From: a virus
Strand: one strand, 5' to 3'
Length of the DNA stretch: 64,000 nt
Virus record (IMG/VR): IMGVR_UViG_3300020442_002247
Location: 5,454 to 69,453 of that record
In this document: piece after piece, positions 276 to 27,567 of the stretch
Numbering within the stretch: the first letter of the stretch is position 1
How the letters are laid out: every line of letters starts with the position of its first letter
Translations under genes and position numbers: made by a program
The notes under the pieces: generated by a model
The model's database searches: none
Told to the model about the DNA's origin: nothing
What the model saw: only the letters and a program-made list of their open reading frames with translations

Positions 276-283
276 ACTAAATA
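276..283 (+). promoter_or_regulatory. T4-like late promoter (ACTAAATA)
   Basis: Variant of the TAAATA motif that recurs upstream of most late genes in this window. It lies ~8 nt before the riboswitch. Confidence 0.6.
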
Positions 284-291
284 ATAGTACA

Positions 292-349
292 ATCGTTCAT
301 CCTGGAAGGGGACGGAAGTAGCACAAGCGAAGGAACGCACTTTAACTGT
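292..349 (+). ncRNA. glnA RNA: Glutamine riboswitch, glnA-motif (glutamine-I) type
   Basis: AUCGUUCA-[UCCU GGAAG GGGA]-CGGAAGUA-[GC ACAA GC]-GAAGGAACGC. P1 is CGUUC(294-298)/GAACG(343-347), with P2, an E-loop (GAAGUA/GAA) and a short P3. Matches the glnA motif consensus as I recall it. Confidence 0.75.
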
Positions 350-365
350 AAAAGGGAGAAGTGTT

Positions 366-479
366 ATGGATATTTTCACTTTTTGGTGCTTCAAAAGAAT
401 ACTCAGACAGCATCGTATAAAAAAGATTCAATATATATTGAGACGAAAATCTTATGGCTTATTCAAAGGAAGTTATTGA
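366..479 (+). CDS. 37-aa basic small ORF downstream of the riboswitch (MDIFTFWCFKRILRQHRIKKIQYILRRKSYGLFKGSY)
   Basis: SD GGGAG at 354-358, ATG 366, TGA 477-479. Overlaps the iscU start and is below the ORF-track length cut-off. Confidence 0.55.
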   Translation: MDIFTFWCFKRILRQHRIKKIQYILRRKSYGLFKGSY

Positions 480-861
480 TCATTATGAAAGACCACGTAA
501 TGTTGGTTCTCTGGACAGTAGCGATGATAGTGTTGGCACTGGTATTGTTGGTGCTCCAGAATGCGGTGATGTAATGAAACTGCAAATTAAAGTTGATGAC
601 AATAAAATAGTTGACTGTAAATTTAAAACTTTTGGTTGTGGTTCTGCTATTGCTAGTTCTTCTTTGGCTAGTGAATGGATTTTAAATAAAACCATTACAG
701 AAGCAGAAAAAATACAAAATACAGACATTGTAGAAGAACTTAGTTTACCTCCTGTAAAAATACACTGTTCTGTACTAGCAGAAGATGCAATTAAAACCGC
801 CATAGGTGATTACAAACAAAAACAACATCAACGTCTTACTGACATTAGAGGCGGAATGTGA
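454..861 (+). CDS. iscU: Fe-S cluster scaffold protein IscU
   Basis: MAYS..VIDHYE.PRNVG, GAPECGDVM, FKTFGCGSAIASSS, LPPVKIHC: all three Cys ligands and the HscA-binding LPPVK motif are present. Confidence 0.96.
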   Translation: MAYSKEVIDHYERPRNVGSLDSSDDSVGTGIVGAPECGDVMKLQIKVDDNKIVDCKFKTFGCGSAIASSSLASEWILNKTITEAEKIQNTDIVEELSLPPVKIHCSVLAEDAIKTAIGDYKQKQHQRLTDIRGGM

Positions 862-2327: not shown

Positions 2328-3368
2328 ATGTCAAAAGTACTAAAAGTTGAAAATGGAAATTATACAGTAAAGGTTGAAGCCGGCGGTAACATAATTCTTG
2401 ATACTGCTAGGGGAACCAATACTGGTAATCCTGCTTTACCTGCTGGCACTGTGATTGTAAGAGGTAGTCTTGAAGTTGAAGGTAGTACAACTACTGTTGA
2501 ATCTAACGATACATTACTCAATGACAATATTATTACATTAAACAACGGTGAAACAGGTGCTGGTATTTCTGCTAGTAAAGGCTACAGTTCGGGATTAGAA
2601 GTTGATAGAGGATCTCTTGCAAAAGGTAGATTTATTTGGGACGATCAGATAGCTTGGACACTAGGAGGCGATAGCGGAACAGGTACTTGGAAAATTGAAG
2701 ATTCAACAAGCAAATTACTACCTTTAAAAACAAAAGGTATTGTTTCTGACGGTACATTATACATAAGCACGGGTAATCAAGTAATAAGTGTAACTGGCAC
2801 AAGTGACTATGAAACAGGAATATTCACTTACACCGGAAGTAACATTGTTGACAGTGGTAGCGGTGTTGTAATAGATGACGACAACGTTCCTAATACTAAA
2901 GCTGTAGTTGATTATGTGGCATTTGCTATTCAAAACGTTGTTCAGCCTAAAATTGAAGAAAACGACACAGTTGTAGAAACACACGATTTTCAAACAACAG
3001 GAACACCGAGTAGAGTAGATATTTCTATAGACAATAATGTTACAACTCAATTTTTTGCAGATAGAGTAGACTTTGACGGTATTAGACTTATAGGTACTAA
3101 GATAACAACAAACACAAGTAATGCTGATATGACAATAGAAGCACCTGGAGGCGGTGCAGTTATTGTAAATGACACATTACAAATTACAGAAACGCCAGGA
3201 GTAGACGACCCGGGTGTCACTGACCCAACTGCACCAACAGAAGGTATAAAACTTTACAGTAAAACCGAAGCTGGCGGACGTACAGGCTTATTCTTTGTAA
3301 ATAAAAGCAGTAGAAGAAGTGAAATAATAAGTAACGAAAGATCACTTGCATATAGCATGATCTTTTAA
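2328..3368 (+). CDS. Virion structural/fibre-associated protein
   Basis: 346 aa, beta-rich (GSLEVEGSTTTVES...DNIITLN, GLEVDRG), with a C-terminal hydrophobic helix RSLAYSMIF. Confidence 0.7.
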   Translation: MSKVLKVENGNYTVKVEAGGNIILDTARGTNTGNPALPAGTVIVRGSLEVEGSTTTVESNDTLLNDNIITLNNGETGAGISASKGYSSGLEVDRGSLAKGRFIWDDQIAWTLGGDSGTGTWKIEDSTSKLLPLKTKGIVSDGTLYISTGNQVISVTGTSDYETGIFTYTGSNIVDSGSGVVIDDDNVPNTKAVVDYVAFAIQNVVQPKIEENDTVVETHDFQTTGTPSRVDISIDNNVTTQFFADRVDFDGIRLIGTKITTNTSNADMTIEAPGGGAVIVNDTLQITETPGVDDPGVTDPTAPTEGIKLYSKTEAGGRTGLFFVNKSSRRSEIISNERSLAYSMIF

Positions 3369-12554: not shown

Positions 12555-15500
12555 ATGGCAGAATTTAAACTAGATAGATTTAAGTATAGTTGGAAAGGTG
12601 AGTGGACCACTGGAACTGATTATAAAAGAGATGACATAGTTAGAGTAGGTGGTAAGTCATATGTTTGTATTGTAACACATATTGCGGCGGCAAACTTTTA
12701 TGTTGATTTGTTGTATACTGTACCAGGTTCTAATCCTCCTGTTCCTGATCCTAAATGGGTAGTGATGACCAGTGGGTCATCTTTTGTAGGTAATTGGACT
12801 GTAGGCAATGCATACAATTTAGGAGACATAGTATTTAAAGATGGTACATTATGGAAATGCACAGGGAATGTAGCAAGTGCAACAACTTGGGCCACAGATG
12901 AAAGCAACTTTGAATTATTTTCAGCACACATTAAATTTATGGGTGCATGGACAACAGGAACAGACTACGGTAAAGGTGCACTGGTTAGATATAACGGAAT
13001 AGTATATAAATGTATTACATCACATACTTCACAAGCGGCATTAGAAGATGATCAAGCAAGTTGGGAAGTATTTTTTGAAGGTGTAGAATTTGTAGGTGAT
13101 TACGCAGGTGCAACAAAATACAATGTAAATGATCTAGTAAGATATGGCGGATCAATTTATAGATGTACAGTAGGTCATACATCAAGTTCATTAAATCCAG
13201 ATGTAATGGACTTAACAAAATTCACAGTTGAGTATCCAGGTTACCAATGGGAAAAAGATTGGGATTATCAAAAATATTATCAAACAGGTGATGTAGTAAG
13301 ACAAAGTGGTTATGTATATTACTGTGTAAACAGCAATGTAGATAGTGAACCGAGTGTAACAGATAGTACAAACAACTGGTTAGTACTTGCTTATGGTTAT
13401 TACTTTAAGGGTGATTGGTCACCAACAGGATTTTATAGACCAGGCGATGTTGTAAGTAGAGGCGGAGATCTTTATGTAGCAAAAACACAGATATCAGGCG
13501 GGGGACAAGAAGAAAGCACATTAGACTATGTTAATAGTGACTATTGGGACGTACTTGCAAAGAGTCAGTCTTGGTCTAAAGAAAACAATATAATTTATTA
13601 CAGAGTTTCTATTGGACCAGTAAATGATCAGTTAGATAGTCAAACTGGAGATCACAGATTTGTAATTGATGGTTCATACAAACCAGCATTGGTTTTTGAA
13701 AAAGGTGCAACATATGTATTTGACCAAAGTGATCCTACAAATGCATATTATCCTAACACAAACTTTGGCGAAATAAACAATGTTCATCCTTTAAACTTTA
13801 GTTCAAATAGTGCTAACGGACCATTGACAGACGGCGGAAACTATTACACAACTCATGTACATTATTATCTTGACAATGTAATGGTAACTAGAGAAACTTA
13901 CAATACTTTAGCTGATTTCTTAGCGGCAACTTATAGACGTGTTGAGATAATGGTTCATGCTGATACTCCAACACAACTTTATTATTTCTGTGACAAACAT
14001 TTATACATGGGTAACTCTGTTACTGTTATTGCAGGAAAAACAGGAGAATGGCAATTAGGAAAAGAATACAGAGTAAATGAAGTAGTATATCACTTAGGAA
14101 ACGCATACAAAAATAATACACAACACATATCAGATAACAATAACTATCCAGGAGATAATGGTAGTGGTTATGTGTATTGGGATCTACTTGTACAAGCTGG
14201 TCAACCAGCAGGTATGAACACCAGAGGAGATTTATTAACTTTTAATCTTAACAGAAGAGAACAAGATGACGGAAGTAGTTTTGGAAACACAAATGTTCCT
14301 ATTGGACGTAAAGAACAATTATTATCAGTAGACAGCAATGATACAGTGTTTTGGAGAGATTACATACACAATGCAGATGTAGTTTATGTTGATACTAACG
14401 GTGTTGATGATGCAGAGAATGGTTATGGATTATCTTATTACAAACCATTCAAGACTGTTAGATATGCTTTAGAATTTGTGGAAGATAATTTTGATCCATT
14501 AACTCCTGTTAAAGTTGCTGTGGCGACAGGTAGATATACTGAAATATGTCCAATGAGTATACCGGCAGGTTGTGTAGTAATGGGTGATGAACTTAGGTCT
14601 ACTACTATTGAAGCTAACCAACCTTTAACAGCATATGCTAATGACACTGACAAAGCTCAATCTTATTTTGATTATTTAAGTACAATAATTTTCGATGTAT
14701 TGAATAACAATCCTATTGTTTCAAAACCAGGTAATACTTTTACACAAAATTTAAACGCGGCACCAGCAGTTGGTACAGGTGTTACACCTACTATAGTTAA
14801 CCTAACCACTGATATAATGCAGTACATAAATTTTTATGTAAACAGCACTGGATTAGATGTAACTGTAACAGGAACTAATACACTGAATACTAATACAAAT
14901 TTTATTAACGGTGCAAACATATTACTAGCAAACAAAAAATTCCTTGCTAAAGATATGATAGAACATGTCAAATCAACATTTCCAGCTTATGTATTTGAAG
15001 AAGACAGAATGATGCATGATATTTTAGCATTCTTAAGAGGTATAGCTTATGATATGAAATATCCTGGAAACTATAAGTCAATTTTAGCGGCTAGAAGATA
15101 TTCAAATGCGGCTACAGGATCACAACTTGAAGATATGTTTTGGTGTAGAGATGTAACAGGCGTTAGAAACTGTACACTTGAAGGACTAAAAGGTACATTA
15201 AATCCTCCAGGTGTTTATGAATTATATCAAAGACCAACAGGAAAATCTTTCTGTAGCTTGGATCCAGGATGGGGACCAGCAGATAATAGAACTTGGATTA
15301 ACACTAGATCACCTTACTTACAAGGTGTAACTAACATAGGTACTTCATGTATAGGTAAAAAAGTAGATGGTGCATTACACAACGGTGGAAATAAATCCAT
15401 GGTTTCTAATGACTTTACACAAGTTATCAGTGACGGTGTTGGTGCATGGGTACTAAACAACGGTAGAGCTGAACTTGTATCAGTGTTTACATACTATTGT

Positions 15501-18500
15501 GCAGTTGGATACCTTGCAGATCAAGGAGGAATAATTCGTGCAACAAACGGTAACAACTCCTATGGAAAATATGGTGCAGTTGCAGATGGAATTGATGCAT
15601 CAGAAGTTCCACAGACTGCAACAGTTGATAATAGAAACAATGAAGCACAAGTAAGATCAGTTTTTGCAGGTACATTTAGTGATGAGATATTTGCATTTGA
15701 ATATCAAAATGCAGGACAAGAATATACAAATGCCAATGCAACAATTACAGGAGCTGGTGCTAATGCAAGTGTAGAATTTACAGATTTTAGAGATAATGCA
15801 CTGTTTGAAGCAAGAATAGTAAACCCACCAGATAGTGGAGCCGCAGGTGGATTAGGTTATTCCAAATATGGTAATAATGCACAATCTGGAAACACAACAA
15901 GTATTCAATTAGCAACAGCAGAAAGTTTTGCAGAAGCAGATATTTTAGGATTAAGAATAATAATTACAGCAGGTGACGGTACAGGACAATATGGTTATGT
16001 AACAGGTTATACTCCTGCAACTAGACAATGCACAGTATCAAAAGAAACAACAGGTCAGCCAGGTTGGGATCACGTATTACCAGGAAAACCAATTGCAAGT
16101 TCTTTAACTACAAATACACAATATGTATTAGAACCAAGAATAACCTTTAGTAGTCCAGGATTTGCAGATACATCAGCAAGTTTACCAGGAACTAACAATA
16201 TTGTAGATGCAACTTATGGCGAAACAACTCTAACATTTACAGATGTTGAAGGGACATTAGGTAGTGGAACTACAGACGATCAGGTTACACCAGCGCCGGC
16301 TAAATTTAATATTACAAAATCAGGCAAAAATTACGCTGTAACAGTATCTGATGCTGGTGCAGGTTATGCTTTAGAAGATACAATTACTATTGCTGGAACA
16401 GATTTAGGAGGTGCTTCTCCTGCTAATGATTTAACTATAATTGTAAAAGGAATAACAGACGATAGTACAAATGCAATTACATCCATTTATTCAAGTGGTA
16501 AAGGTGTTGCAGGAAAATTTGTTGTATTCAATGATGCAAATAATGTATATACAAGTGATGACGGAGTAAATTGGTCAGGATCTACTGTAAGTGCATCAGG
16601 AAGTTGGAAAAGACTTATAAGCGGAGGCAATAGATTTGTTGCAATTAGATTTGCACAAGGTGATGCATACAGTTCTAACAACGGAACGGTATGGACACAG
16701 AGAACAATGCCAGAAAGTGCAAACTGGTCAGACATAGCTTACGGTGGCGGCAAGTTTGTTGTAGTAGCTGAAGGATCAAACACAGTAGCCTACAGTGCCA
16801 CAGGTGAGTCCTGGTCTAGTGCAACAATGCCGGCAGATGATGACAGTACATTTACTCAATGGCAAGGTGTTGCATATGGAAACGGAAAATTTGTTGCAAT
16901 AGGTTCTAATAGAGAAGCCGCATACAGTAGTGACGGTTTAACTTGGACTCGAGTAAACAATGCTTTACCTGTAGGTGATTTTTATAACTGGGTAGGTGGA
17001 CTTACTTTTGGAAAAGGAAAATTCCTTGCTATTGCAAATACAGGAGATGTAGTTTACAGTTTTGACGGGCAAACTTGGTATAACGATACAATGCCAACTC
17101 AAGATGGTTCAACACAAATGAATTGGAAGTCATGTAAGTATGAACAAGGAATGTTTTTTGCTACTTGTGACACAGGTAATCAAGTTATAGGTAACGATGC
17201 TACAACAGGCGAAACTACTTTTACATGTACAAGTGAAGACGGTGTACACTGGACTGGCAGAAACTTGTCAGCACAGAAATCTTGGGTCACAAGTGCTCAT
17301 GGAAATCCAAATGGTGTACCTATACATTTATTACTTGCTGGAGGTGCTGGAGCAGATGCTGTAGCAATTTTAGACACAGGTTGTACAGCAAAAGGTAGAG
17401 CAGATTTAAGTAGTGCAGGTAAATTTAACGCAATTAAAATTTGGGATCCGGGTAGTGGTTATTCTACTGCTCCTACATTAACAGTAACAGATCCTAAAAC
17501 TTCTAGTTTAACATTACTGTTGTTCACTACTCAACGCTTAGGTGATGGAGTATTAGGACAACCTAGTTTTGTAAATAGCGGAATAGGATATAGATCTGCA
17601 ACAACAACTGTAGCAGTAAGCGGAGATGGATTTGCAGATATTATTCCTGGAGATGTAACAAGTGGTTCACAATTTGTAACATTACAAGGCGTAACAACTG
17701 TTCCAGGACCAGGAGCTCAGTTACTGTTTAGTACTATTCCTGATACTACTACAGCAGATCCAGATGATTTGAAAATTTTTAACGCTGTAGTAATTACGGA
17801 TTTAGGAGATGATGGTTCTGGATTAAACAAGAAAAGAATACGTTGTCAGATAAGTCCAAACTTAGAGATTGAAGATGATCTACAACATGACACAGCATTA
17901 ACAATCAGAGAACGTTACAGTCAATGTAGAATTTCAGGACATGACTTTTTAGATATAGGCACAGGAAACTTTGAAACAACAAATTATCCAGATATCTATG
18001 CTGGAGGTGCGTTTTTTGTAGCGTCACCAGAAAATGAAGTACTAGAACAAAACGGTGGTAGAGTGTTTTACACATCTACAGACCAAAGTGGTAATTTTAG
18101 AGCAGGCGAATTATTTGCAGTTGAACAGGCAACAGGTATTGTTACAATTAGTGCTCAATTCTTTGACCTAGATGGTTTAAGTGAATTAGCATTAGGTGGT
18201 GTTAGATTAGGAGGTTCTGGAGCAGTAATTAAAGAATTCTCAACAGATCCTTTCTTCTCAGAAGATAGTAATAATGTTATACCAACACAAAGAGCTATTG
18301 CTACTTTCTTAGCAAATAGACTTAGTGTAGGTGGATCCGATCTTGAAACTAACCAAATTATTGCTGGTAGAATAAGGATTGGTGGTCCACAAAACGTTAT
18401 TAACACAACTATAGACACAGAAATTACTGTACCAACACTAACTACTTTTGAAGGAGCAAGTACAAGTATTGCAGGATCTATTGTACAACAAATGATGTTT

Positions 18501-18533
18501 TTGAGACAACCATTTGATTCAGGAATGCAATAA
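12555..18533 (+). CDS. Giant virion appendage protein (1992 aa): CBM5/12-like repeats, cupredoxin-like insert, beta-helix, BNR-type propeller (paralogue B1)
   Basis: N-terminal W..GT.Y..GD.V.Y.G..Y.C...HTS repeats, S.DG..W propeller repeats, and the C-terminal GHDFLDIGTG...GGRVF.TSTDQ.GNFR.G block shared with B2. Confidence 0.82.
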   Translation: MAEFKLDRFKYSWKGEWTTGTDYKRDDIVRVGGKSYVCIVTHIAAANFYVDLLYTVPGSNPPVPDPKWVVMTSGSSFVGNWTVGNAYNLGDIVFKDGTLWKCTGNVASATTWATDESNFELFSAHIKFMGAWTTGTDYGKGALVRYNGIVYKCITSHTSQAALEDDQASWEVFFEGVEFVGDYAGATKYNVNDLVRYGGSIYRCTVGHTSSSLNPDVMDLTKFTVEYPGYQWEKDWDYQKYYQTGDVVRQSGYVYYCVNSNVDSEPSVTDSTNNWLVLAYGYYFKGDWSPTGFYRPGDVVSRGGDLYVAKTQISGGGQEESTLDYVNSDYWDVLAKSQSWSKENNIIYYRVSIGPVNDQLDSQTGDHRFVIDGSYKPALVFEKGATYVFDQSDPTNAYYPNTNFGEINNVHPLNFSSNSANGPLTDGGNYYTTHVHYYLDNVMVTRETYNTLADFLAATYRRVEIMVHADTPTQLYYFCDKHLYMGNSVTVIAGKTGEWQLGKEYRVNEVVYHLGNAYKNNTQHISDNNNYPGDNGSGYVYWDLLVQAGQPAGMNTRGDLLTFNLNRREQDDGSSFGNTNVPIGRKEQLLSVDSNDTVFWRDYIHNADVVYVDTNGVDDAENGYGLSYYKPFKTVRYALEFVEDNFDPLTPVKVAVATGRYTEICPMSIPAGCVVMGDELRSTTIEANQPLTAYANDTDKAQSYFDYLSTIIFDVLNNNPIVSKPGNTFTQNLNAAPAVGTGVTPTIVNLTTDIMQYINFYVNSTGLDVTVTGTNTLNTNTNFINGANILLANKKFLAKDMIEHVKSTFPAYVFEEDRMMHDILAFLRGIAYDMKYPGNYKSILAARRYSNAATGSQLEDMFWCRDVTGVRNCTLEGLKGTLNPPGVYELYQRPTGKSFCSLDPGWGPADNRTWINTRSPYLQGVTNIGTSCIGKKVDGALHNGGNKSMVSNDFTQVISDGVGAWVLNNGRAELVSVFTYYCAVGYLADQGGIIRATNGNNSYGKYGAVADGIDASEVPQTATVDNRNNEAQVRSVFAGTFSDEIFAFEYQNAGQEYTNANATITGAGANASVEFTDFRDNALFEARIVNPPDSGAAGGLGYSKYGNNAQSGNTTSIQLATAESFAEADILGLRIIITAGDGTGQYGYVTGYTPATRQCTVSKETTGQPGWDHVLPGKPIASSLTTNTQYVLEPRITFSSPGFADTSASLPGTNNIVDATYGETTLTFTDVEGTLGSGTTDDQVTPAPAKFNITKSGKNYAVTVSDAGAGYALEDTITIAGTDLGGASPANDLTIIVKGITDDSTNAITSIYSSGKGVAGKFVVFNDANNVYTSDDGVNWSGSTVSASGSWKRLISGGNRFVAIRFAQGDAYSSNNGTVWTQRTMPESANWSDIAYGGGKFVVVAEGSNTVAYSATGESWSSATMPADDDSTFTQWQGVAYGNGKFVAIGSNREAAYSSDGLTWTRVNNALPVGDFYNWVGGLTFGKGKFLAIANTGDVVYSFDGQTWYNDTMPTQDGSTQMNWKSCKYEQGMFFATCDTGNQVIGNDATTGETTFTCTSEDGVHWTGRNLSAQKSWVTSAHGNPNGVPIHLLLAGGAGADAVAILDTGCTAKGRADLSSAGKFNAIKIWDPGSGYSTAPTLTVTDPKTSSLTLLLFTTQRLGDGVLGQPSFVNSGIGYRSATTTVAVSGDGFADIIPGDVTSGSQFVTLQGVTTVPGPGAQLLFSTIPDTTTADPDDLKIFNAVVITDLGDDGSGLNKKRIRCQISPNLEIEDDLQHDTALTIRERYSQCRISGHDFLDIGTGNFETTNYPDIYAGGAFFVASPENEVLEQNGGRVFYTSTDQSGNFRAGELFAVEQATGIVTISAQFFDLDGLSELALGGVRLGGSGAVIKEFSTDPFFSEDSNNVIPTQRAIATFLANRLSVGGSDLETNQIIAGRIRIGGPQNVINTTIDTEITVPTLTTFEGASTSIAGSIVQQMMFLRQPFDSGMQ

Positions 18534-18554
18534 AGTACTAAGAGAAACATATAT

Positions 18555-18562
18555 GATAAATA
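18555..18562 (+). promoter_or_regulatory. Late promoter GATAAATA
   Basis: Motif 20 nt upstream of the B2 start, followed by SD GGAG. Confidence 0.7.
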
Positions 18563-18582
18563 TTATAACGGAGTTAACTTAA

Positions 18583-21500
18583 ATGGCAGAGTTTAAACTA
18601 GGTAGAATTAGATTTGTATGGAAGAATAATTGGGCTTCCTCAACAACCTATTACAAAGATGACGTTATCGCATATGGCGGTAAGATGTACCTTTGTGTGA
18701 TAGGACACACCAGTGCGGCGGACTTTTTTACAGATTTAGATGTAAGTCCTTCAAAATGGAATTTAGTAAGTGATGGTCAAACATGGAAAGGTGATTGGAC
18801 AACAGGCACCTATTATGTGTATAATGATATAGTTGCTTATGGTGCTAGACTGTATATCTGCCAGACAGTTCACACATCAGCCGCTGATTCAACACAAGGA
18901 CTTGAAGCTGACATAGATAAGTGGCAAATATTTGCCGAAGGTTTAGATTGGAAAGGTGACTGGACTACTAGTACACGTTATATAATTAATGATGTTGTAA
19001 AGTACGGCGGACAGGTTTATGTTTGTAACGAAGTACACACTTCAAATTCTACAGCTAATGGAGGATTAGAACAAGATCAATCCAAATGGGATTATTTAAA
19101 TAAAGGTGTAGAATACAAAGGCGAGTGGACTGGCTCAGCTGACAACGTACCAGGAACTAGATATAAAGTAAATGATATTGTACGTTATGGTGCGGCTCTT
19201 TGGATTTGTACAACTCATCATACTTCAACAGCAAGATTTTCAACTGACGTTGCAAATTGGGATCAATTTGTAAGAGGTTTTCAGTTCGAAGCAGATTGGG
19301 ATTTTAATAAAACATATCAACCAGGTGACGTTGTAAGATATGGTGGTAATCAATATATTGCAAAAACTAATAATTACGAAAAAAATCCTTTCACGCAAAA
19401 TGCAGACTGGGATTTATTTTCAGAAGGAATAAAATTTTTACAAGAGTGGGGATCAGATTCTACCGCATATGAATATAAGCCAGGTGAATTAGTTACACAC
19501 GGTGCATACACATATATTTGCACAGCTGATCATTCTAATCAAGAACCTCCTAACGCAAGTTACTGGAAAAGATTACATACTGGATTACGCTGGAGAGGAC
19601 AATGGTTAGATGACCAACAATACTTACTAGGCGATGTTGCTAGATACGGTGACAACTCATATGTTTGTATTAACGGACATTTATCAGAAGGTGACGACGG
19701 ATCTTCAGGAGCTGGAGCTGGAGCTGGAAATAGTAGACCAGACCAAGATACAAGTGGTACTTATTGGAATATAATTGCAGTTGGTTCAGAACAAAGTGTG
19801 CTTACTACCAAAGGCGATATGGTTTATTATGCAGACAACGGACCTGCAAGATTACCAATAGGTAAAAATGGACAAGTACTTCAAGTTAGTGCAGATAACA
19901 TTCCAGAATGGGCATATTTAGGAAATGCAGATGACGTTTATTTTGTTGCAGAACATGGTGTTGACAGCCCTGCACCAACTTATGGAAAAACTATTGATAG
20001 ACCTTTTAGAAGTATAAGATATGCGGCTGAGCAAATTGAAAAAGGTGCAAGAAATCCTAATGCCGGAAGATTATTAAACCTCAACAGACAGTTTGTACAA
20101 AAAGAAATTTTAGAATGGATACAATATCAAGTTACTAATACTATATCTCCTTTTACAGGATCATTTGTCTTTAATACAGAAAAGTGTGAAAGAGATATGG
20201 GACTTATTGTAGATGCTATAGTTCATGATATCACACACGGCGGAAATGTTAAGTCAAGAGAAGCGGCTCTATCTTATGTAAATGATACAGCTGGATCTCC
20301 ATACTTAACACAAAAAGACGAAACAGTAGCAGGTATTAATTATGGCGTAACAGTAATGCAAAATGTACTTGCACAAACTGCTCCAGGAACTAATTATCAA
20401 ACAGCAAACGGCGACAACAGTTCAGCCGTAGTTGCACAATATTTTGAAACTGGAATAACAGCAGAAACAGGAATAGCTAATGAAGTACAGCAATTAGCAA
20501 AAATAATTACAGACGCAATTACAGCTGGTGTAGCAACTAATATTCCTAATAGACTTATTAGAAATACTTTAATTAAAGTTTCAACTGGAAAGTATTATGA
20601 AATATTACCTATCATAGTACCAGCAGAATGTTGTGTTATGGGAGATGAACTTCGTTCTGTAGAAGTACAGCCTAGAAAAAATACAAATGCAATAGTAAAT
20701 AATCCTGTCAATTTTACACCTTCAGCAGTAGTTTATACTCCTACTACAGGTGAAATGGTTATTACTATAGGTAATCACAGTATACAAGTAGATCAAAAAA
20801 TTACTATTGCACCAAATAGTTTAACTTTTACTTGTGCTCAAGATAGTAATGCTACAAATCATACATATCCTAGAGCAGGTGATCCTGCATACAATACTGA
20901 ACTAACAGTTTCAGCAGTAACTGATACAACTATTACTGTAAATGTTGGTGTTAGTTCTAATACTACTGTGCATACTTTTGTAAATGCTTCACAAAATGCA
21001 ATTACATACGGGTCATACACATCAGGATTAACAAATATCAAAGACAGCATCTATAGTTTTACAGCTTTACGTAGAATGGAAGATGTTGTTGGAAGAGTTA
21101 TTAGAGGAACTACTGTAGCAAAAACAGCAGGGGCAACTGGTACTCAATCTTCAAACTTTCCATTAGGTGAAAAAGATCAAGAAACTGCAGGTAGACAATT
21201 ATCAAGAATTATTAGAAGAAATGTTGATCATGGACTAGGACAAAAACTAGAACAAGAACTTGCAGGCTTAGATGCAATTCACGATATTAATTACGGATAT
21301 GCTAGAAATTTAATTATAGAAAATAAAAAGTTTGCACAAGAAGAAGTTATTGGATATATTACAGAAAACTATCCTACACTAAAGTATAGCAAAACTAAGT
21401 GCAGACAAGACGTAGGATATATTATAGATGCAATAGCATATGATTTAACCTATCAAGGAAATTGGCAAACTACAAATGCTGGTCTAGCTTACTACAGTGG

Positions 21501-24500
21501 TAGAACAGGAACTCTACAATTAGATCCTTCACAAACTACACAAACAGTGGCAGCATATGGATATTTAAAAACAATTCTTCAAGCTATTGCACAAGATAAT
21601 TTAAATGCTCCAACTAAGCAATCTAATGTATCTCAAGTAAGAGGTACAGCAGGTAGTTCAGCCGCGGCAACAGCAGTTGGTGGTTATATCGATGGAATTA
21701 TTACAATTATCAATAGCGGAGCATCTTATGAACCTACTATTACATATCCAACAATAGGCGCATCAGTTGATGTAGGGTTAACACAAGCTTCAGATAAACT
21801 TGTTTCTGCTAAAGAACACATTGGTGAAAAAGCAGTTGATTTTATCAGCAAAAACTTTGGCACATACAAATACGACAGTGCTAAATGTAGAAGAGATTTA
21901 GGCAAGATTATTACTGATACATCATATGATATTGCAATGGGTACAAATTTTAATGCTGTATACACAGGTATCGCATACAAAAGAGGTAATAATCAATATA
22001 ACAACAATGTACAAAGAACACAAACAGTTGGTTCTATAAGACATGCTAGAGATTTACTTAAAACATCTGTAACTACAGACGGTTCAAGTGCATCAGGTTC
22101 AAGTAATGCTTCTACAAGAATTAGCACAGCATATGATGAAGTAGTTGATATTATTGAAAACGCTCCATTAGGAAATGCAATTCCAGGAGCAACAGCAGTA
22201 GATGCATTGAGCTTACCATCTCCAGCTGGCGTTGCACAAGATAAAGTAGATGCTAAAAACTTATTACAATCAAACAAAGCGTTTATTGCGGCAGATGTAA
22301 ATGCTTATGTTGCTGTAAATTATCCTTCACACTCGCATGATGCGGCAAAATGCACACGTGATACAGGATACTTTGTTGACGCTTTATCATATGATATACT
22401 ATACGGTGGTAATCAAGCAACAATGAGAGTTGCTGATAGTTTTATTGATGATGATTTAGTTTATGTTTACGGTGTAGATGGAAGTGCAACTGCAATTACA
22501 AAAGCGGCATATACGCACATGAAGTCTATTGTAGACGATATTGTTACAGAAACTTCTATAACTAAACAAACAGGAAACAGTGAAACACAAGTAACCAGTG
22601 GAAATCCAGCAACAGGCACAGAAGGTACTGCAATTCAAAATAATGTAGATCTTGTGTTAGACGTTTTAACACCAAGAACTCCTGCCGCTGGTACTACTTA
22701 TGATCCAGTATCGGGTGATTTAGTAGTAAACATCGGTGCTCATAACCTAGAAGTAGGTGGCGAAGTTAGAATTGCAGACGGAGCTATTAGATTTACTTGT
22801 GGACTTGATAGTAATGCAACTAATCATGACTATCCACGCTCAACAGATCCAGCTTCCAGTAAGAGATTAACTATTCTTGCAGAAACAGCAAATACAATTA
22901 CAGTAAACGTAGGACCATCACAAAACACTTCAACTCATGTGTTTGTAAGTGGTGTTGCAAATAGTGTGCTTGTGTTATTGCCAAAAGTAATTACATATCC
23001 AGATATTACTTGGGCTGATGCTGAATACAAAACTGCACACAGCGATATTTTAAGTGATAAAAATGATGTTATAAAATCTACAATACAGTACATTCAAGAT
23101 ACTTACAGTGGTTTCAAATATAACCATGCTAAGTGTACAAGAGATTTAGGATACATCATTGATGCGGCAAGATATGATTGGATGTTAGGTACTAACTTTG
23201 CAAGTATGATTGCGGCTTATTCATACTTGAGAGAACCAAGCAAAAAAGTACTTGGAGATCAAAAAGACTTTACACTTGCGGCTCTAGAATTTGAAAGAAT
23301 ACAGTGTAAGAAAAATGTAAACTTTAATCTTGTAGCACAGTCTGGTATTGATATGACTTTTGATTGGTTAAAAGATATCATATTTGGTGGAAGCTGTGAA
23401 GGTAATAATAGAACTACAGATATATTCAATAACCACAGTGCATCAAGACAGTTAGAATTAAACAAACCATTTATTGTTGATGAACTACAATCATATGTTG
23501 AAGAATACTTTAAAGGAAAAATTGATAAAATTGATTCGTCAAAAGTATTCACCACAGTATACAATACATTTACTCCAACAAATGCAGTATACACTCCTAC
23601 AACAGGTCAAATGGTTATTACAATTGGTTCACACACATTAACAACTGGACAGTTGGTTAGAATAGAACCTAACGGTATAACATTTACTTGTGCTCAAGAT
23701 AATAATGGAACAAATCACAGTTATCCAAGAGCATCTGATCCAAGTTATAAAGATGCATTACCAATTATTTCATTTGATGCAACTACTATTACAGTTAATG
23801 TTGGAATATCTTCTTATACTGGAACACATACTTTTGTAAGTGCATTGACTGGTGCAGTAAAACATGGCGGTACTTACTGGTTAAGTCAAAATCAAGAAAT
23901 TAAATTCCAAGGTGGAGAAGATAGCACATTATCAATTGAAGATACAGGATTAGAAGAATCATCAACTTATTTTGTAAAAGATATTTTAAGTCCATCAACA
24001 TTTACTATTAGTGCTACTAAAGGTGGTGCTCAATTAACCACAATGAGTGAAAGCGAAACAGGTAAAAACTTTGGATTTAAAAAAGCGTATGGCTATGAAA
24101 AAACAGCATGTACACGTGATGTAAATGCATACTTAGATGCTGTTAAATGGGATATGTTATGGGCTAAAGAATTTGTTAGAGAATACACAGACGGTGTAAG
24201 ATTAGTATTACCAGCAATGTATAAATCAAAATATGCGGCTAGATACTACATCAATGCTGTTAACGGTTCTCAAGAAGAAGACATGTACTACTTTAGAAAT
24301 GGTACAGGTTTAAGATTACAGTCAGTAAAAGGTTTAAGTGGAGACTTAGGTCCTGCAAATGCTAATGGAACAAGTAGACCAACAGCAGGTGCATATGCAT
24401 CGCTTGATCCAGGATGGGGACCAGATGATGAGCGTGTTTGGATTACTGCACGTTCACCATATGTACAAAATGTTACAACATTTGGTGATGCCGCAACTGG

Positions 24501-27500
24501 ACAACGAATAGATGGTGCATTACACAACGGAGGCAACGACTCAATTGTTTCCAATGACTTTACACAAGTTATCAGTGACGGTATTGGCGCACATATTCTT
24601 AACAATGGTAGAGCAGAACTTGTTTCTGTGTTCAGTTACTATGCACACATAGGATACTTGGCTGAAAGTGGCGGAAGAATTAGAGCTACAAATGGTAATA
24701 ACTCATACGGTGATTTTGGATCCGTAGCAGAAGGAGTTGATCCAGATGAAGTAGCAGTGACAGCAATAGTTGATAACCAAGATCAATACAAAGCTGTGAT
24801 TGATAATGTTGTTGTTGACAACAATCAGGTATTAGCTTTTGAATATGGACATGCAGGAAATGATTATACTGAAGCAAGTATGAGTATTTTTGGACCAGGC
24901 TCAGGAGAAGCTATTGAAGAAGATGAATTCAGAGACGATGGTGTTAATCAGGTTAGACTTCTTAACATAGATGATTCTAGTGGAGCAATTGGTGGCAGTG
25001 GGTTCCAGCTTGTATCAAATACTGCACAAAGTGGTAATGCAACAAGTATTACACTAGCGGCAACAGACGGAAATAGTTCAACAGCTTATCCTGGTATGAA
25101 ACTTTACATTACTGGAGGTAATGGAGTAGGTCAGTATGGTATCATTGATACATATAATTCAGGATCAAAAGTTGCAACAATCAAAAAAGATTCAGATGCA
25201 TCAGCTGGATTCGATCATATTGTAGCAGGAACAGCTATAGTAAGTCCAGACTCAACTAGTGTATATCAAATTGAACCAGCAATTAAATTTACAGGACCTA
25301 CAGATAGCAACTCAGCACACACTTTAAGCTCATCTAATAATTGGTCAGATGTTAGATGGATGGAAACTGGTGCTAATTTTACAGCAGTATCAACAACTAC
25401 AACAAGTGTTGCAGGTTCAGGTGCTACATTTAACGTAGAAAAAGTTGGAAGTAAATATTTTGTTACTTTATCAAGCGGTGGACAGGACTACACTAGATTA
25501 GATACATTAACTGTACTAGGTACAAATGTAGGCGGATCTACTACTACACATGATATTACTATAACTGCAACAACAGTAAATGCAACTACAGGTGCTATTG
25601 AAGCATTTGATTTTACAGGCAATGCAAATGGTGGTGTTTATATTGCACTACCTGGAACTAACGGTGCAACAGCAGGATCAACAAGCACAAATGGTACTAC
25701 ATGGACAGCTGAAACATTGCCAAGTCCAGGCGGTAGTGCATTTTGGCATAGAAGTGCAGACGGTTATTTAGACGATGGATCATCGACATTTAGAACTTCA
25801 CAAATGGTTATTGTTGCAACTCAAAGTAACAATGTTGCTTACACAACAGATGGCACTACATGGTCAACAGCTACTCTACCTAGCATGACTGCAGGAAGTA
25901 AAAAATACGTAGCATTCGCAGACCTAGGAGCAGGCTTTACAAGGTTTGTTGTTATTAACGAAGTTGATGACGATGTTTGTTATTCAGATGATGGTGGGGC
26001 AAACTGGACATTTGTTAGCGGAGCATTACCTGCGGCAGGATTTGAACATTTAACTAGAGGTGCAGGAAAATTTGTTGCAATTAAAAGCGGAGCGGCATGT
26101 TATTCAACAGATGGTATAACATGGTCAAGTGCATCAGGTGCACCGGCTTCAGAAACATTTGTTGACATGGCTTATGGTAACAATAGATTTATTGCTATTG
26201 CTTCAACTTCTAATGCATTAAGTTATAGTTTAGATGGCGGAGATAATTGGACAGCTGGTACATTACCAGCAGTAGCATCACCAACAGCATATAAGAGAAT
26301 TGCATACGGACAGGGAATGTTTGTTGCAACTCAAACTTCATCAAACTCAGCAGTTTGTAAATCAGAAGAAGGTTTAATTTGGTCGCAATACTCAGTTACA
26401 GCTGATCCTGGTACTCCAAGCGGACATAATGCAATAGCATTTGGTAATCCGGATAGAGCAGGACAGTTTGTGTTTATATCAAACGGTGCTTCTAAAAACC
26501 ATATTATTAAATCCGTAATAGGTTGTACAGCTAGAGGCAGAGCTAGTGTTGCAAGTGAAAAAATATTCAAAATTAGAATTGTAGAACCAGGATCAGGATA
26601 TGGATCAGCACCAACAATGACTGTTACAGATCCAGGAAATATTAATGATATCAACTTTACAGTTAGAACAAACAAAGGTGTATTAGCTAATCCTTCCTTT
26701 GTAACACGCGGTACAGGATTTACACAAGCATCAGCTGATGTAAACACTATCGGCAGTGATGGTAGAGCAGACTTTTTACAAGATGGACAGTATATTGCTG
26801 TAAGAAGATTAAGTGCAAAACCAGTAGACGGATCAAATGTAGTTTTTGACAGTATACCAAACAAAGTATTTAAACTAGTTGGCACTGTAAGTTTTGTAGG
26901 TAGTCAAGATGGATCTTATACATCATTCCTACAAGTAAGTCCACAAATGGCAAACGAAGATGCAGTTCCAGATGGTGATCCAGTTACTATAAGAATTAGA
27001 TATTCACAAGTCAGATTAACTGGGCATGACTTCCTTGATATTGGTACAGGCGGATTTACATCAACTAATTATCCAGGAACACCAACAGTAGCTCCTGATC
27101 AAACCAAAGAAACAAAAGGTCTAAATGGAGGTAGAGTATTCTTTACAACTACAGACCAAGATGGTAACTTTAGAGTTGGTGACTTGTTCAGTATTGAACA
27201 GTCAACAGGTGTTGCAACATTGGATGCTGAATCATTTAATATTGCAGGATTGCAAGAACTTACACTTGGAGAAGTTACACTAGGTGGTAACTCTGCAAGT
27301 ATTACAGAATTTAGTACAGATCCGTTCTTCACAGCAAATTCAGATACTATTGTTCCTACTCAGAGAGCAATCAAAGCATATATTGAGGCACAAATTGGAG
27401 GCGGTGGTGCTTCTCTTAACGTTAACAGTGTAACAGCAGGTGATATCTTCGTAGGATCAAATGTTATACAGAACGTTGCAGGAGGAGTGATAAATATTCA

Positions 27501-27567
27501 AGCAAGGATTAATTTCCAAGGCGGAGTTACAGGATTACCTGTAGCTTACAATTACTTTTTAAGATAG
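18583..27567 (+). CDS. Giant virion appendage protein (2994 aa) with CBM-like repeats, six helical KCxRD repeats, beta-helix and propeller (paralogue B2)
   Basis: MAEFKL(G/D)R start and C-terminal block shared with B1. Repeats are described under findings. Confidence 0.82.
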   Translation: MAEFKLGRIRFVWKNNWASSTTYYKDDVIAYGGKMYLCVIGHTSAADFFTDLDVSPSKWNLVSDGQTWKGDWTTGTYYVYNDIVAYGARLYICQTVHTSAADSTQGLEADIDKWQIFAEGLDWKGDWTTSTRYIINDVVKYGGQVYVCNEVHTSNSTANGGLEQDQSKWDYLNKGVEYKGEWTGSADNVPGTRYKVNDIVRYGAALWICTTHHTSTARFSTDVANWDQFVRGFQFEADWDFNKTYQPGDVVRYGGNQYIAKTNNYEKNPFTQNADWDLFSEGIKFLQEWGSDSTAYEYKPGELVTHGAYTYICTADHSNQEPPNASYWKRLHTGLRWRGQWLDDQQYLLGDVARYGDNSYVCINGHLSEGDDGSSGAGAGAGNSRPDQDTSGTYWNIIAVGSEQSVLTTKGDMVYYADNGPARLPIGKNGQVLQVSADNIPEWAYLGNADDVYFVAEHGVDSPAPTYGKTIDRPFRSIRYAAEQIEKGARNPNAGRLLNLNRQFVQKEILEWIQYQVTNTISPFTGSFVFNTEKCERDMGLIVDAIVHDITHGGNVKSREAALSYVNDTAGSPYLTQKDETVAGINYGVTVMQNVLAQTAPGTNYQTANGDNSSAVVAQYFETGITAETGIANEVQQLAKIITDAITAGVATNIPNRLIRNTLIKVSTGKYYEILPIIVPAECCVMGDELRSVEVQPRKNTNAIVNNPVNFTPSAVVYTPTTGEMVITIGNHSIQVDQKITIAPNSLTFTCAQDSNATNHTYPRAGDPAYNTELTVSAVTDTTITVNVGVSSNTTVHTFVNASQNAITYGSYTSGLTNIKDSIYSFTALRRMEDVVGRVIRGTTVAKTAGATGTQSSNFPLGEKDQETAGRQLSRIIRRNVDHGLGQKLEQELAGLDAIHDINYGYARNLIIENKKFAQEEVIGYITENYPTLKYSKTKCRQDVGYIIDAIAYDLTYQGNWQTTNAGLAYYSGRTGTLQLDPSQTTQTVAAYGYLKTILQAIAQDNLNAPTKQSNVSQVRGTAGSSAAATAVGGYIDGIITIINSGASYEPTITYPTIGASVDVGLTQASDKLVSAKEHIGEKAVDFISKNFGTYKYDSAKCRRDLGKIITDTSYDIAMGTNFNAVYTGIAYKRGNNQYNNNVQRTQTVGSIRHARDLLKTSVTTDGSSASGSSNASTRISTAYDEVVDIIENAPLGNAIPGATAVDALSLPSPAGVAQDKVDAKNLLQSNKAFIAADVNAYVAVNYPSHSHDAAKCTRDTGYFVDALSYDILYGGNQATMRVADSFIDDDLVYVYGVDGSATAITKAAYTHMKSIVDDIVTETSITKQTGNSETQVTSGNPATGTEGTAIQNNVDLVLDVLTPRTPAAGTTYDPVSGDLVVNIGAHNLEVGGEVRIADGAIRFTCGLDSNATNHDYPRSTDPASSKRLTILAETANTITVNVGPSQNTSTHVFVSGVANSVLVLLPKVITYPDITWADAEYKTAHSDILSDKNDVIKSTIQYIQDTYSGFKYNHAKCTRDLGYIIDAARYDWMLGTNFASMIAAYSYLREPSKKVLGDQKDFTLAALEFERIQCKKNVNFNLVAQSGIDMTFDWLKDIIFGGSCEGNNRTTDIFNNHSASRQLELNKPFIVDELQSYVEEYFKGKIDKIDSSKVFTTVYNTFTPTNAVYTPTTGQMVITIGSHTLTTGQLVRIEPNGITFTCAQDNNGTNHSYPRASDPSYKDALPIISFDATTITVNVGISSYTGTHTFVSALTGAVKHGGTYWLSQNQEIKFQGGEDSTLSIEDTGLEESSTYFVKDILSPSTFTISATKGGAQLTTMSESETGKNFGFKKAYGYEKTACTRDVNAYLDAVKWDMLWAKEFVREYTDGVRLVLPAMYKSKYAARYYINAVNGSQEEDMYYFRNGTGLRLQSVKGLSGDLGPANANGTSRPTAGAYASLDPGWGPDDERVWITARSPYVQNVTTFGDAATGQRIDGALHNGGNDSIVSNDFTQVISDGIGAHILNNGRAELVSVFSYYAHIGYLAESGGRIRATNGNNSYGDFGSVAEGVDPDEVAVTAIVDNQDQYKAVIDNVVVDNNQVLAFEYGHAGNDYTEASMSIFGPGSGEAIEEDEFRDDGVNQVRLLNIDDSSGAIGGSGFQLVSNTAQSGNATSITLAATDGNSSTAYPGMKLYITGGNGVGQYGIIDTYNSGSKVATIKKDSDASAGFDHIVAGTAIVSPDSTSVYQIEPAIKFTGPTDSNSAHTLSSSNNWSDVRWMETGANFTAVSTTTTSVAGSGATFNVEKVGSKYFVTLSSGGQDYTRLDTLTVLGTNVGGSTTTHDITITATTVNATTGAIEAFDFTGNANGGVYIALPGTNGATAGSTSTNGTTWTAETLPSPGGSAFWHRSADGYLDDGSSTFRTSQMVIVATQSNNVAYTTDGTTWSTATLPSMTAGSKKYVAFADLGAGFTRFVVINEVDDDVCYSDDGGANWTFVSGALPAAGFEHLTRGAGKFVAIKSGAACYSTDGITWSSASGAPASETFVDMAYGNNRFIAIASTSNALSYSLDGGDNWTAGTLPAVASPTAYKRIAYGQGMFVATQTSSNSAVCKSEEGLIWSQYSVTADPGTPSGHNAIAFGNPDRAGQFVFISNGASKNHIIKSVIGCTARGRASVASEKIFKIRIVEPGSGYGSAPTMTVTDPGNINDINFTVRTNKGVLANPSFVTRGTGFTQASADVNTIGSDGRADFLQDGQYIAVRRLSAKPVDGSNVVFDSIPNKVFKLVGTVSFVGSQDGSYTSFLQVSPQMANEDAVPDGDPVTIRIRYSQVRLTGHDFLDIGTGGFTSTNYPGTPTVAPDQTKETKGLNGGRVFFTTTDQDGNFRVGDLFSIEQSTGVATLDAESFNIAGLQELTLGEVTLGGNSASITEFSTDPFFTANSDTIVPTQRAIKAYIEAQIGGGGASLNVNSVTAGDIFVGSNVIQNVAGGVINIQARINFQGGVTGLPVAYNYFLR

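Follow-up and report, generated by a model that had tools for sequence, protein, structure and literature searches.

What does a glutamine riboswitch regulate when it lies between the major capsid gene of a phage and a gene for an iron-sulfur (Fe-S) cluster scaffold? The question is raised by a stretch of DNA of 64,000 nucleotides from a marine T4-like phage (IMG/VR record IMGVR_UViG_3300020442_002247, positions 5,454 to 69,453), referred to here as the window, whose numbering is used throughout. A preliminary description gave the order capsid terminator, riboswitch, Shine-Dalgarno (SD) sequence, 37-codon open reading frame (ORF) and iscU. Each of these elements was found where it had been placed, all on the plus strand. 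To our knowledge, glutamine riboswitches are mechanistically understood only in cyanobacteria, where they gate an inhibitor of glutamine synthetase (GS). For the locus as a whole, we consider it likely that positions 277–452 form a small mobile cassette with a glutamine-ON switch, and that this switch regulates not iscU but the peptide, whose probable field of action is the nitrogen metabolism of the host.

The RNA at 292–341 matched the full Rfam model (positions 1–53) of the type-I glutamine riboswitch (glnA RNA, RF01739), scoring 51.7 bits where the gathering threshold is 35 (E 1.9e-08 in the 64-kb window). Its P1 helix is formed by 294–298 and 333–337. The junction letters CGUUC...ACGGAAGUA...GAAGGAACG of the three-helix architecture are invariant in 34 related RNAs (alignment A1), and P2 and P3 each contain two pairs with compensatory changes on both sides. 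P1 is invariant among these RNAs and thus provides no covariation information. Judged by its sequence, the window RNA is a true glnA-type (type-I) glutamine riboswitch, as had been proposed, and would be expected to bind glutamine. The second covariance model named in the preliminary description was that of Glutamine-II (Downstream-peptide) RNAs, known from marine picocyanobacteria and cyanophages, where they accompany DUF4278/YRG peptides (Weinberg et al. 2010, PMC2864571). These systems resemble the window in having a glutamine aptamer before a short conserved ORF, but the window RNA scored only 9.1 bits with this model (RF01704; gathering score 33, E 8), and the window peptide has no YRG motif.

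Positions 1–225 encode the 3' end of the g23-type major capsid protein gene (Pfam PF07068 Gp23, E 3.2e-18). Of 120 viral loci with the riboswitch, 33 have this 74-amino-acid capsid tail immediately before it (25 at 74–95% identity, 8 at 49–54%). The intrinsic terminator of g23 (246–274) is predicted by RNA folding as a hairpin of 11 pairs at 246–271 (−17.6 kcal/mol, z −3.97, equalled by 1 of 200 shuffles) followed by a run of seven Ts. A simple consensus terminator scan of the window did not list this hairpin. The terminator is kept in L123, L124 and L125, three relatives without the cassette, and in many that carry it.

The left end of the cassette is a box resembling a T4-type late promoter, CTAAATAA at 277–284 (CTAAATA 277–283). 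T4-type late promoters serve late genes and have a TATAAATA-like box approximately 6–8 nt before the transcript start. TAAATA was found 8–22 nt before the aptamer CGTTC in 48 of 116 distinct upstream sequences, and the box is not present in the cassette-less L123, L124 and L125. The preliminary description had placed a late-type promoter directly after the capsid terminator. The box is present there and recurs in relatives, but CTAAATA is not enriched in the 64-kb window (14 matches compared with 21.5 expected). The late-promoter reading therefore comes from conservation across related loci and not from the window alone. The window is a block of baseplate, sheath and fibre genes; the riboswitch-peptide unit sits behind a late-type box within this structural-gene block and may be transcribed late.

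The 37-codon ORF (366–479) is preceded by AGGGAG at 353–358, 7 nt before the ATG at 366, and GGAG is conserved at the SD position in alignment A1. In agreement with the first description, the ORF is unannotated and basic, has a strong SD and overlaps iscU (by 26 nt). Its codons 1–29 (366–452) are native, whereas the last 8 are an out-of-frame reading of the iscU insert. The ORF belongs to a family of 38 distinct members (family A). At all 38 loci at least 28 codons are open in frame, compared with 4 of 38 per other frame and 12.8% of shuffles. The conservation and dN/dS analysis that had been suggested for this ORF gave dN/dS values of 0.07–0.80 in 41 of 48 close pairs (those computable), all of them short (84 nt) and not independent of each other. 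Family A is very divergent (mean column identity 29%). An amino-acid pattern nevertheless persists despite the strong nucleotide divergence, with aromatic residues at 4 and 7, Cys at 8, and basic residues at 10–11 and 17–20. The distance from the SD to the ORF is constant. The small ORF is coding-like and probably a real gene.

AlphaFold2 predicted one helix spanning residues 3–31, with pLDDT values of 91, 95, 86 and 54 per block of 10 residues. Confidence falls over the last 7 residues, which correspond to the iscU-overlap part. Together with the net charge of approximately +8 for the native 29 residues, this model suggests that the native peptide is a micropeptide of about 28 residues, basic and formed by a single helix. 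When 1.84 billion representatives were searched with a profile, 22 clusters were obtained, all of 29–72 amino acids, and none of the 22 contained a longer fused form. Pfam relatives of the window peptide or of the peptide of another locus (L043) were not found at E values up to 1. A PDB profile search with the family-A alignment A2 gave chance-level matches only (E ≥1.5), and the protein atlas search gave no usable match and a low 'recognition' value.

The shortness of the peptide, the lack of a known family and the low recognition value would also fit a small ORF that codes for no product. In that case the riboswitch would act on RNA only, through its stability or on tmRNA, and the open frame would be a by-product of a conserved RNA. 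We regard this as very improbable: the restriction of the open frame to one phase, the dN/dS values below 1, the amino-acid pattern kept while the nucleotides diverge, and the fixed SD spacing all argue against it. The same explanation draws support from the Methylophilales phage Melnitz, the riboswitch of which is read as a controller of ssrA in the available excerpt of Buchholz et al. 2022 (PMC9004378); the 32-codon ORF described below is not mentioned in that excerpt.

In Melnitz (L001), the aptamer and leader are 85% identical to the window over 309–368, and an unannotated 32-codon family-A ORF lies directly behind the riboswitch (L001 3057–3152). Melnitz thus shares the aptamer, the leader and the peptide family with the window. 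The two differ in their surroundings, as a two-piece tmRNA adjoins the Melnitz switch, whereas the window cassette follows g23 and precedes iscU. The Rfam tmRNA models end at L001 2933 and 2978 and the riboswitch follows at 2986–3034; it is hard to see how a switch lying downstream of the tmRNA gene could control that gene. Most likely, the Melnitz switch controls the unannotated 32-codon gene and not the tmRNA, a reading that would correct the published assignment. A Melnitz-type ssrA context was also considered for the window and rejected, as ARAGORN gave no tmRNA or tRNA there, which again argues against an RNA-only role. In several phages, the cassette follows an ssrA or tRNA gene.

The viral aptamers were surveyed for what lies behind them. 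Among 133 aptamers in 120 viral loci, 13 were the first of a tandem and 5 lay too near the end of the locus, leaving 115 assessable. All 115 precede an ORF of 18–78 codons (112 with ATG and 18–65 codons, 3 with GTG and 78 codons). In this sample, 27 ORFs are of the YRG kind, and YRG peptides from other loci scored 19.9–26.5 bits with DUF4278. At least five further peptide families were found behind the same sensor in viral DNA. The regulated product is therefore most likely the peptide and not iscU.

How the switch could regulate translation is suggested by a hairpin in which 337–343 (the last base of P1 and its 3' flank) pairs with 358–364 (the last base of the SD and the spacer before the AUG). 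This hairpin (337–364; −9.0 kcal/mol, z −3.40, equalled by 1 of 200 shuffles) is also part of the minimum-energy structure predicted for the complete leader. On the 34 RNAs of alignment A1, 92.6% of the cells of this helix are paired, and one pair is U-A in 17 and C-G in 16 RNAs. The arms covary, as seen in the pairs GCACCT/GGGTGT, GCACTTT/GAAGTGT, CATCTTT/GGAGATG, GCGCCT/AGGTGC and CAATCTT/GAGATTG. Pairing of the aptamer 3' flank with the 18 nt that precede the AUG reached at least five contiguous pairs in 68 of 89 distinct viral leaders, with a mean of 5.58 contiguous pairs in the 89 leaders compared with 3.95 in shuffles. The arrangement of a translational ON platform, in which the 3' flank of P1 pairs with the ribosome-binding region, is thus present as a covarying helix. 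In the window, this helix takes in only the last base of the SD and the spacer, and most of the SD lies in the loop.

A similar arrangement is known from Synechocystis sp. PCC 6803, in the leader of gifB, which encodes the GS inactivating factor IF17. According to the available excerpt of Klahn et al. 2018 (PMC6212724), the ribosome-binding site of this leader pairs with a stretch that begins at C68, and IF17 synthesis is activated by glutamine. The window shares with it the aptamer family, the pairing of the ribosome-binding region 3' of P1, and a small basic product. By analogy with the excerpted gifB work, we infer that the window switch is of the ON type. When glutamine is absent, 337–343 would pair with 358–364 and block the ribosome; when glutamine is bound, P1 and its 3' neighbour would be locked into the aptamer, the helix would open and the peptide would be translated. 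The two systems differ in that the gifB promoter is controlled by NtcA, whereas the window cassette has a T4-type late box, and the owner of the cassette is a phage of a probably heterotrophic marine host, unlike Synechocystis.

The gene behind the peptide (454–861) encodes an Fe-S cluster scaffold. Its product matched NifU_N (PF01592, E 1.2e-50) over profile positions 1–125 of 127, and human ISCU and bacterial IscU scaffold chains with E values of about 1e-57. The alignment to ISCU places the three cysteines in ECGD, GCGS and HCS contexts and includes the LPPVK motif. Compared with other phage-borne iscU genes, the window thus holds a full-length IscU with cysteines and LPPVK motif, and among the viral iscU loci compared, only in the window does iscU lie directly behind a riboswitch-peptide cassette. 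IscU relatives are encoded by 477 viral contigs. In phage C48C1, iscU lies behind a helicase gene block, and a bacterial-type iscR-iscS-iscU-iscA-hscB-hscA operon is present on the contig labelled 'Acinetobacter phage MD-2021a'.

Comparison with relatives resolves the locus into two pieces. By blastn, L124 matches the window at 1–282 and 453–2357 with 96–97% identity, and L123 and L125 behave alike. The 170 nt in between (283–452), comprising the rest of the promoter box, the riboswitch, the ribosome-binding site and the first 29 peptide codons, are absent from these nearest relatives. Rfam found no riboswitch in L124, and the three nearest iscU-bearing relatives (IscU 95–98% identical) have none. 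Conversely, cassette-bearing relatives without iscU match the window from 1 to about 440 and again from about 937 onward. Contigs from RNA libraries join 278/282 to 459 in runs X3 and X22, with letters of the L125 and L123 forms between. Logan contigs of RNA libraries from marine or seawater samples contain near-identical pieces of the region, which show its presence only. These sequence comparisons show that the cassette (283–452) and iscU (453 to about 936), an independent auxiliary gene, are inserts that occur separately from each other at a single hot spot behind g23. The cassette would have landed directly before the separately acquired iscU, lost its own stop and come to read 8 codons into iscU. 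The window copy of the peptide would thus carry a foreign 8-residue tail, which could impair it.

This modularity bears on the proposal that the riboswitch controls iscU as well as the peptide, tying Fe-S scaffold supply to host nitrogen status. No terminator-like site was found between 274 and 1228, so a shared transcript is expected, and iscU is probably co-transcribed with the cassette in the window phage. In agreement with the preliminary description, iscU has no clear SD of its own: the sole SD-like letters are GAG, 10 nt upstream. No stable local structure is predicted for its start region (−1.8 kcal/mol, z +0.66). Ribosomes admitted by glutamine would end 23 nt inside iscU and could re-initiate at its AUG or open iscU. 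However, the 26-nt overlap is long for termination-reinitiation, and ribosomes crossing the iscU start could equally hinder its translation. The iscU genes of the cassette-less L123 and L124 likewise have no SD, so its absence is a trait of this iscU with or without the cassette, and the nearest relatives express iscU without the cassette. The arrangement is also unique among the sequences searched. None of 80 viral iscU loci contained the aptamer motif, and no other viral contig combined the aptamer with an IscU N-terminus within 100–130 nt, a pattern that recovers the window as a positive control. Only 1 of 120 riboswitch loci contained iscU, approximately 5 kb from the riboswitch. The claim that iscU is a target of this riboswitch class is therefore not upheld, and control of iscU in this phage is unlikely. 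IscU would share the transcript through a local accident, and the eye-catching link between riboswitch and iscU would be a product of recombination and not a new regulon.

With the peptide as the preferred target, its role has to be considered. The cassette is not confined to phages. On small marine Burkholderiales chromosomes, a promoter, a tandem riboswitch and a 35-codon family-A ORF are followed directly by a terminator, and the bacterial copies have TTGACA-type promoters. Leader-peptide attenuation was rejected, as the ORF of these units is followed at once by a terminator, and the unit has no gene behind it. In the family of a Pelagibacteraceae MAG (G003), the riboswitch was found in only 2 of 121 sampled genomes. 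GS and PII are encoded in all three cassette-bearing genomes tested. Among 29 genomes from one family of these small Burkholderiales, 8 have the tandem riboswitch and 18 have GlnE, without overlap, and 3 have neither. That all 8 cassette genomes lack GlnE points to control of GS, although the anticorrelation may reflect one clade and one evolutionary event.

In its most specific form, this would make family A a glutamine-induced GS inhibitor, a non-homologous analogue of IF7/IF17 that replaces the lost adenylyltransferase GlnE in streamlined marine Burkholderiales. T4-like marine phages would have captured it behind a late promoter and would use it to stop the host from assimilating nitrogen while glutamine is abundant, and recombination would also have placed IscU behind the leader. 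This full scenario is doubtful. The window peptide has no match to DUF4278 (PF14105), is half as large as IF7 and is predicted to form a single helix. A complex prediction with two GS chains and the 35-amino-acid family-A peptide of the same Burkholderiales MAG gave no answer (score 0.00) and is evidence neither way. In addition, the available excerpt of Buchholz et al. 2022 (PMC9004378) reports that OM43, the host of Melnitz, lacks glnA, which would rule out GS as the target in that host.

The reported lack of glnA is in line with a peptide that is real and induced by glutamine and yet unrelated to GS, namely a late cationic amphipathic helix whose targets would be membranes or nucleic acids, as in the timing of lysis or the binding of RNA or ribosomes. 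The charge of about +8, the single predicted helix, the late-type box and the position inside a structural module agree with this, as does the location of the cassette behind an ssrA or tRNA gene in several phages. We regard such a role as a serious possibility, somewhat short of an even chance. A stand-alone unit in free-living bacteria argues for a cellular, non-lytic function, the sensing of glutamine points to nitrogen metabolism, and the 8 cassette genomes of one family without GlnE also speak against it. Host nitrogen metabolism is the probable target of the peptide under nitrogen-replete conditions, with GS as a possible point of action; a role like that of IF7/IF17 is an analogy that serves as a lead.

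These predictions are cheaply testable, as peptides of 28–35 residues can be synthesised and Melnitz and its host are in culture. For the biology of glutamine riboswitches, the finding would mean that the same sensor gates an unrelated, previously undescribed micropeptide family that is common to marine heterotrophs and their phages.

The window belongs to a T4-like myovirus and spans its block of structural genes, with PHROGs annotations for baseplate wedge, tail sheath, sheath stabiliser and fibre proteins; the IMG/VR record that contains it is 69.4 kb long, with a completeness of approximately 20% (CheckV). At 12555-27567, this block contains two directly adjacent, very long ORFs of 1992 and 2994 aa. 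Behind the 3' end of a Gp23-type capsid gene (1-225), all elements named in the preliminary description were found: a strong terminator hairpin followed by a T run (246-271; -17.6 kcal/mol, z -3.97), a CTAAATA box (277-283), a glutamine riboswitch (292-341), an AGGGAG Shine-Dalgarno site (353-358) located 7 nt upstream of an ATG, a 37-codon ORF (366-479), and iscU (454-861; NifU_N, E 1.2e-50), which overlaps the small ORF by 26 nt.

The RNA is a full-length match to the Rfam model of glnA-type glutamine riboswitches, RF01739 (51.7 bits, with a gathering score of 35 and an E value of 1.9e-08 over the full window), as originally proposed. Since the Glutamine-II model reached only 9.1 bits on the window RNA, we assign it to the glnA type. 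Nucleotides 337-343, which comprise the last base of aptamer helix P1 and its 3' flank, are complementary to 358-364, a segment made up of the final Shine-Dalgarno base and the entire spacer up to the AUG. The minimum-energy fold computed for the ligand-free leader contains this hairpin (-9.0 kcal/mol, z -3.4) but not P1. We surveyed 89 distinct leaders of viral aptamers with a downstream ATG ORF (those without an ORF were dropped). In 68 of the 89, the 8-nt flank can form at least five contiguous pairs with the 18 nt immediately preceding the AUG, and pairing averaged 5.58, compared to 3.95 in shuffled sequences. The platform arms covary, with several matched versions among these leaders. In an alignment of 34 distinct leader RNAs of family A, the basic micropeptide family to which the 37-codon ORF belongs, the platform helix is paired at 92.6%; one of its pairs alternates between U-A (17 sequences) and C-G (16 sequences), and compensatory changes were also found in aptamer helices P2 and P3. 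Klahn et al. 2018 (PMC6212724) describe the same kind of ribosome-binding-site pairing by nucleotides 3' of the aptamer in the gifB leader (C68 and the following nucleotides), and show that glutamine activates IF17 synthesis. Based on leader pairing, covariation and this precedent, the window element is most likely a translational ON switch: 337-343 would sequester 358-364 in the ligand-free leader, and glutamine would turn translation on. Here, we infer both glutamine binding and the direction of the switch.

Scanning IMG/VR for the aptamer core yielded at least 120 loci holding at least 133 aptamers. Of the 133 listed, 13 were the upstream member of a tandem pair and five lay too near the locus end, which left 115. 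Among these listed matches, an ATG ORF of 18-65 codons starts at +12 to +60 behind 112 of the 115 aptamers, and a 78-codon ORF that starts with GTG follows the remaining three. The downstream ORFs sort by motif into several unrelated families: family A (40 instances; aromatics at positions 4 and 7 and Cys at position 8, followed by a basic helix), YRG/DUF4278-like peptides (27), families B (14), F (9), E (9) and C (7), and other ORFs (6). Pfam DUF4278, the IF17 domain, was matched by the YRG peptides only, and a Pfam search with family A gave no match.

Family A was analyzed as 38 distinct peptides out of 42 loci. At all 38 loci the frame is open for at least 28 codons from the ATG; each of the alternative frames is this open in 4 of 38, and shuffled sequences are in 12.8%. 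For 48 of the 703 pairs (70-99% identical over the first 84 nt, and not independent of each other), dN/dS was computable in 41 and ranged from 0.07 to 0.80. Judged by its sequence, the small ORF noticed in the preliminary description is thus conserved and probably coding. A profile of 37 members (Melnitz omitted) searched against 1.84 billion representatives returned 22 clusters, every one 29-72 aa in length, indicating that there is no fused longer form. A 72-aa protein-library entry (P0001) is a head-to-tail duplication of the peptide with two profile matches. AlphaFold2 predicted a single helix (residues 3-31) for the window peptide, with pLDDT values of 91, 95 and 86 for consecutive ten-residue blocks and 54 for the tail. 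In the accessible parts of the literature we found no description of the non-DUF4278 peptides, and short ORFs may stand in supplementary tables. Taken together, a real glutamine riboswitch cassette whose predicted product is a new micropeptide family is well supported.

A late-type promoter was proposed for this transcript. Among the matches listed, 48 of the 116 distinct upstream sequences have TAAATA at 8-22 nt from the 5' end of the aptamer. CTAAATA itself shows no enrichment, with 14 matches in the window where 21.5 are expected; a late transcript we infer only. Since cassette-less relatives do not have the CTAAATA box, it belongs to the cassette. Bacterial copies carry TTGACA-type promoters in its place. 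By eye, GTA-N8-TAC boxes, which we take to be NtcA-like, were seen approximately 35-45 nt upstream of riboswitches preceding YRG and family-F peptides (L019, L024, L034, L006, L016 and other collected loci), which suggests a cyanobacterial type of control at these loci, in contrast to the TAAATA box found in the group of the window. In several viral loci (L050, L055, L095, L054) the cassette begins a few bases past a tRNA-like 3' end (GGTTCGA...CCA), and in Melnitz-like loci right after ssrA; landing sites seem to include positions next to RNA genes in addition to the one behind g23.

It had been proposed that the riboswitch may control iscU along with the small peptide. The window IscU matches human ISCU and bacterial IscU scaffold chains (E ~1e-57) about as closely as these match each other, and contains the cysteines and LPPVK. 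A 29-codon GTG ORF (858-947) inside the iscU insert overlaps the stop codon of iscU (ATGTGA). The viral contigs L123, L124 and L125, whose IscU is closest to that of the window (95-98% identical), are also the closest relatives of the region. All three carry iscU directly 3' of the capsid terminator, in L123 and L124 without a Shine-Dalgarno site. L124 aligns to 1-282 and 453-2357 at 96-97% and does not have 283-452; an Rfam scan of it found manA and freshwater-2 RNAs and no glutamine riboswitch. Other relatives, which have a cassette of family A, B or C 3' of the same capsid gene, match from 1 to ~440, resume at ~937, and do not have iscU. Because relatives carry either one alone, the window contains two independent inserts in tandem. 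The junction at 452/453 falls exactly where the peptide stop codon lies in relatives; the 37-codon ORF therefore ends in 8 codons of out-of-frame iscU sequence. No aptamer motif was found within 1.5 kb in the best 80 of 477 iscU relatives, and iscU occurs in only 1 of 120 riboswitch loci among the matches listed, ~5 kb away. A pattern of an aptamer followed within 100-130 nt by the IscU N-terminus recovered the window itself and no other viral contig. In two public runs there are contigs that connect 278/282 to 459 through letters of the L125 and L123 form, indicating that the cassette-less form circulates in marine samples; as reads were aligned at 88% likeness, these contigs may derive from relatives. 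As no terminator-like site was found between 274 and 1228, iscU is probably on the cassette transcript in the window phage, and a glutamine-dependent coupling of iscU is conceivable, if unsupported. By these genomic comparisons, iscU is a neighbour of the riboswitch, not its target, and the link is incidental.

Behind g23, a stretch of 1.1 kb holds three families of cis-regulatory RNA. A manA RNA (RF01745; 1008-1217) scored 55.8 bits against 55.2 and was found only with lax filters. It is preceded by a sigma-70-like site (TTGACT-17-TATATT, 967-995), followed by a terminator (1228-1259), kept in L124 and L013, and looks like a stand-alone small RNA gene. In the 1292-2281 region, a freshwater-2 RNA (RF02980, 72.9 bits; also in L124, L051 and L013) has its 3' end within the start codon that opens a 153-aa ORF (1373-1834). 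The next ORF (143 aa, 1850-2281) also begins with MGRPINK; in tblastn within the riboswitch loci the two share part of their matches, and Pfam has no family for either.

Glutamine riboswitches are already in print for T4-like cyanophages and Melnitz-like phages (PMC9004378, PMC9964418, PMC9602691). For Buchholz et al. (PMC9004378), the riboswitch belongs to the "3' domain of ssrA" and controls the tmRNA. In Melnitz (MZ577097, L001), the Rfam tmRNA models stop at 2933 and 2978, and the riboswitch (2986-3034) comes after. Behind it lies an unannotated 32-codon family-A ORF on the plus strand (3057-3152), across which a minus-strand hypothetical CDS is annotated. For this part of L001 (2560-3160), the published riboswitch-controlled tmRNA looks like a misreading.

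With a stricter pattern and one genome per species, nine bacterial loci were found. Seven come from MAGs and a single-cell genome of Burkholderiales or Betaproteobacteria, one of them on a 198-kb contig, and have a sigma-70-type promoter and two tandem aptamers. The four fully shown contain a 35-codon family-A ORF with a terminator directly 3'; of the other three, two contain ORFs of 36 and 48 codons, and the third is truncated where the locus ends. Small-genome marine Burkholderiales that carry promoter, tandem riboswitch, family-A peptide and terminator are represented by loci L208, L209, L211 and L213 and by genomes G001-G002 and G132-G139. The other two loci are Pelagibacteraceae MAGs (L206, L210; one on a 263-kb contig) with a single aptamer and a 70-codon family-B ORF. 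This 70-aa protein has a GTSGY motif and is followed by a small Cys-rich ORF; its family also sits behind g23 in phage contigs. Under stricter filters, only 2 of 121 sampled genomes of the family of Pelagibacteraceae MAG G003 had the riboswitch.

In the family of the Burkholderiales group, 8 of 29 genomes carry the tandem riboswitch and 18 carry GlnE. The two never occur together, three genomes have neither, and all eight carriers are among the 11 without GlnE (Fisher probability ~4e-5, although the eight may be one clade and the exclusion a single event). Glutamine synthetase and PII were present in all three cassette-bearing genomes tested. Cyanobacteria are not known to have GlnE and use riboswitch-controlled inactivating factors; this family likewise has the riboswitch only where GlnE is absent, a parallel that we regard as a lead, not proof. 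The OM43 host of Melnitz is without glnA according to Buchholz et al. (PMC9004378), which counts against this lead. Control of glutamine synthetase would be the most interesting reading of the role of family A.
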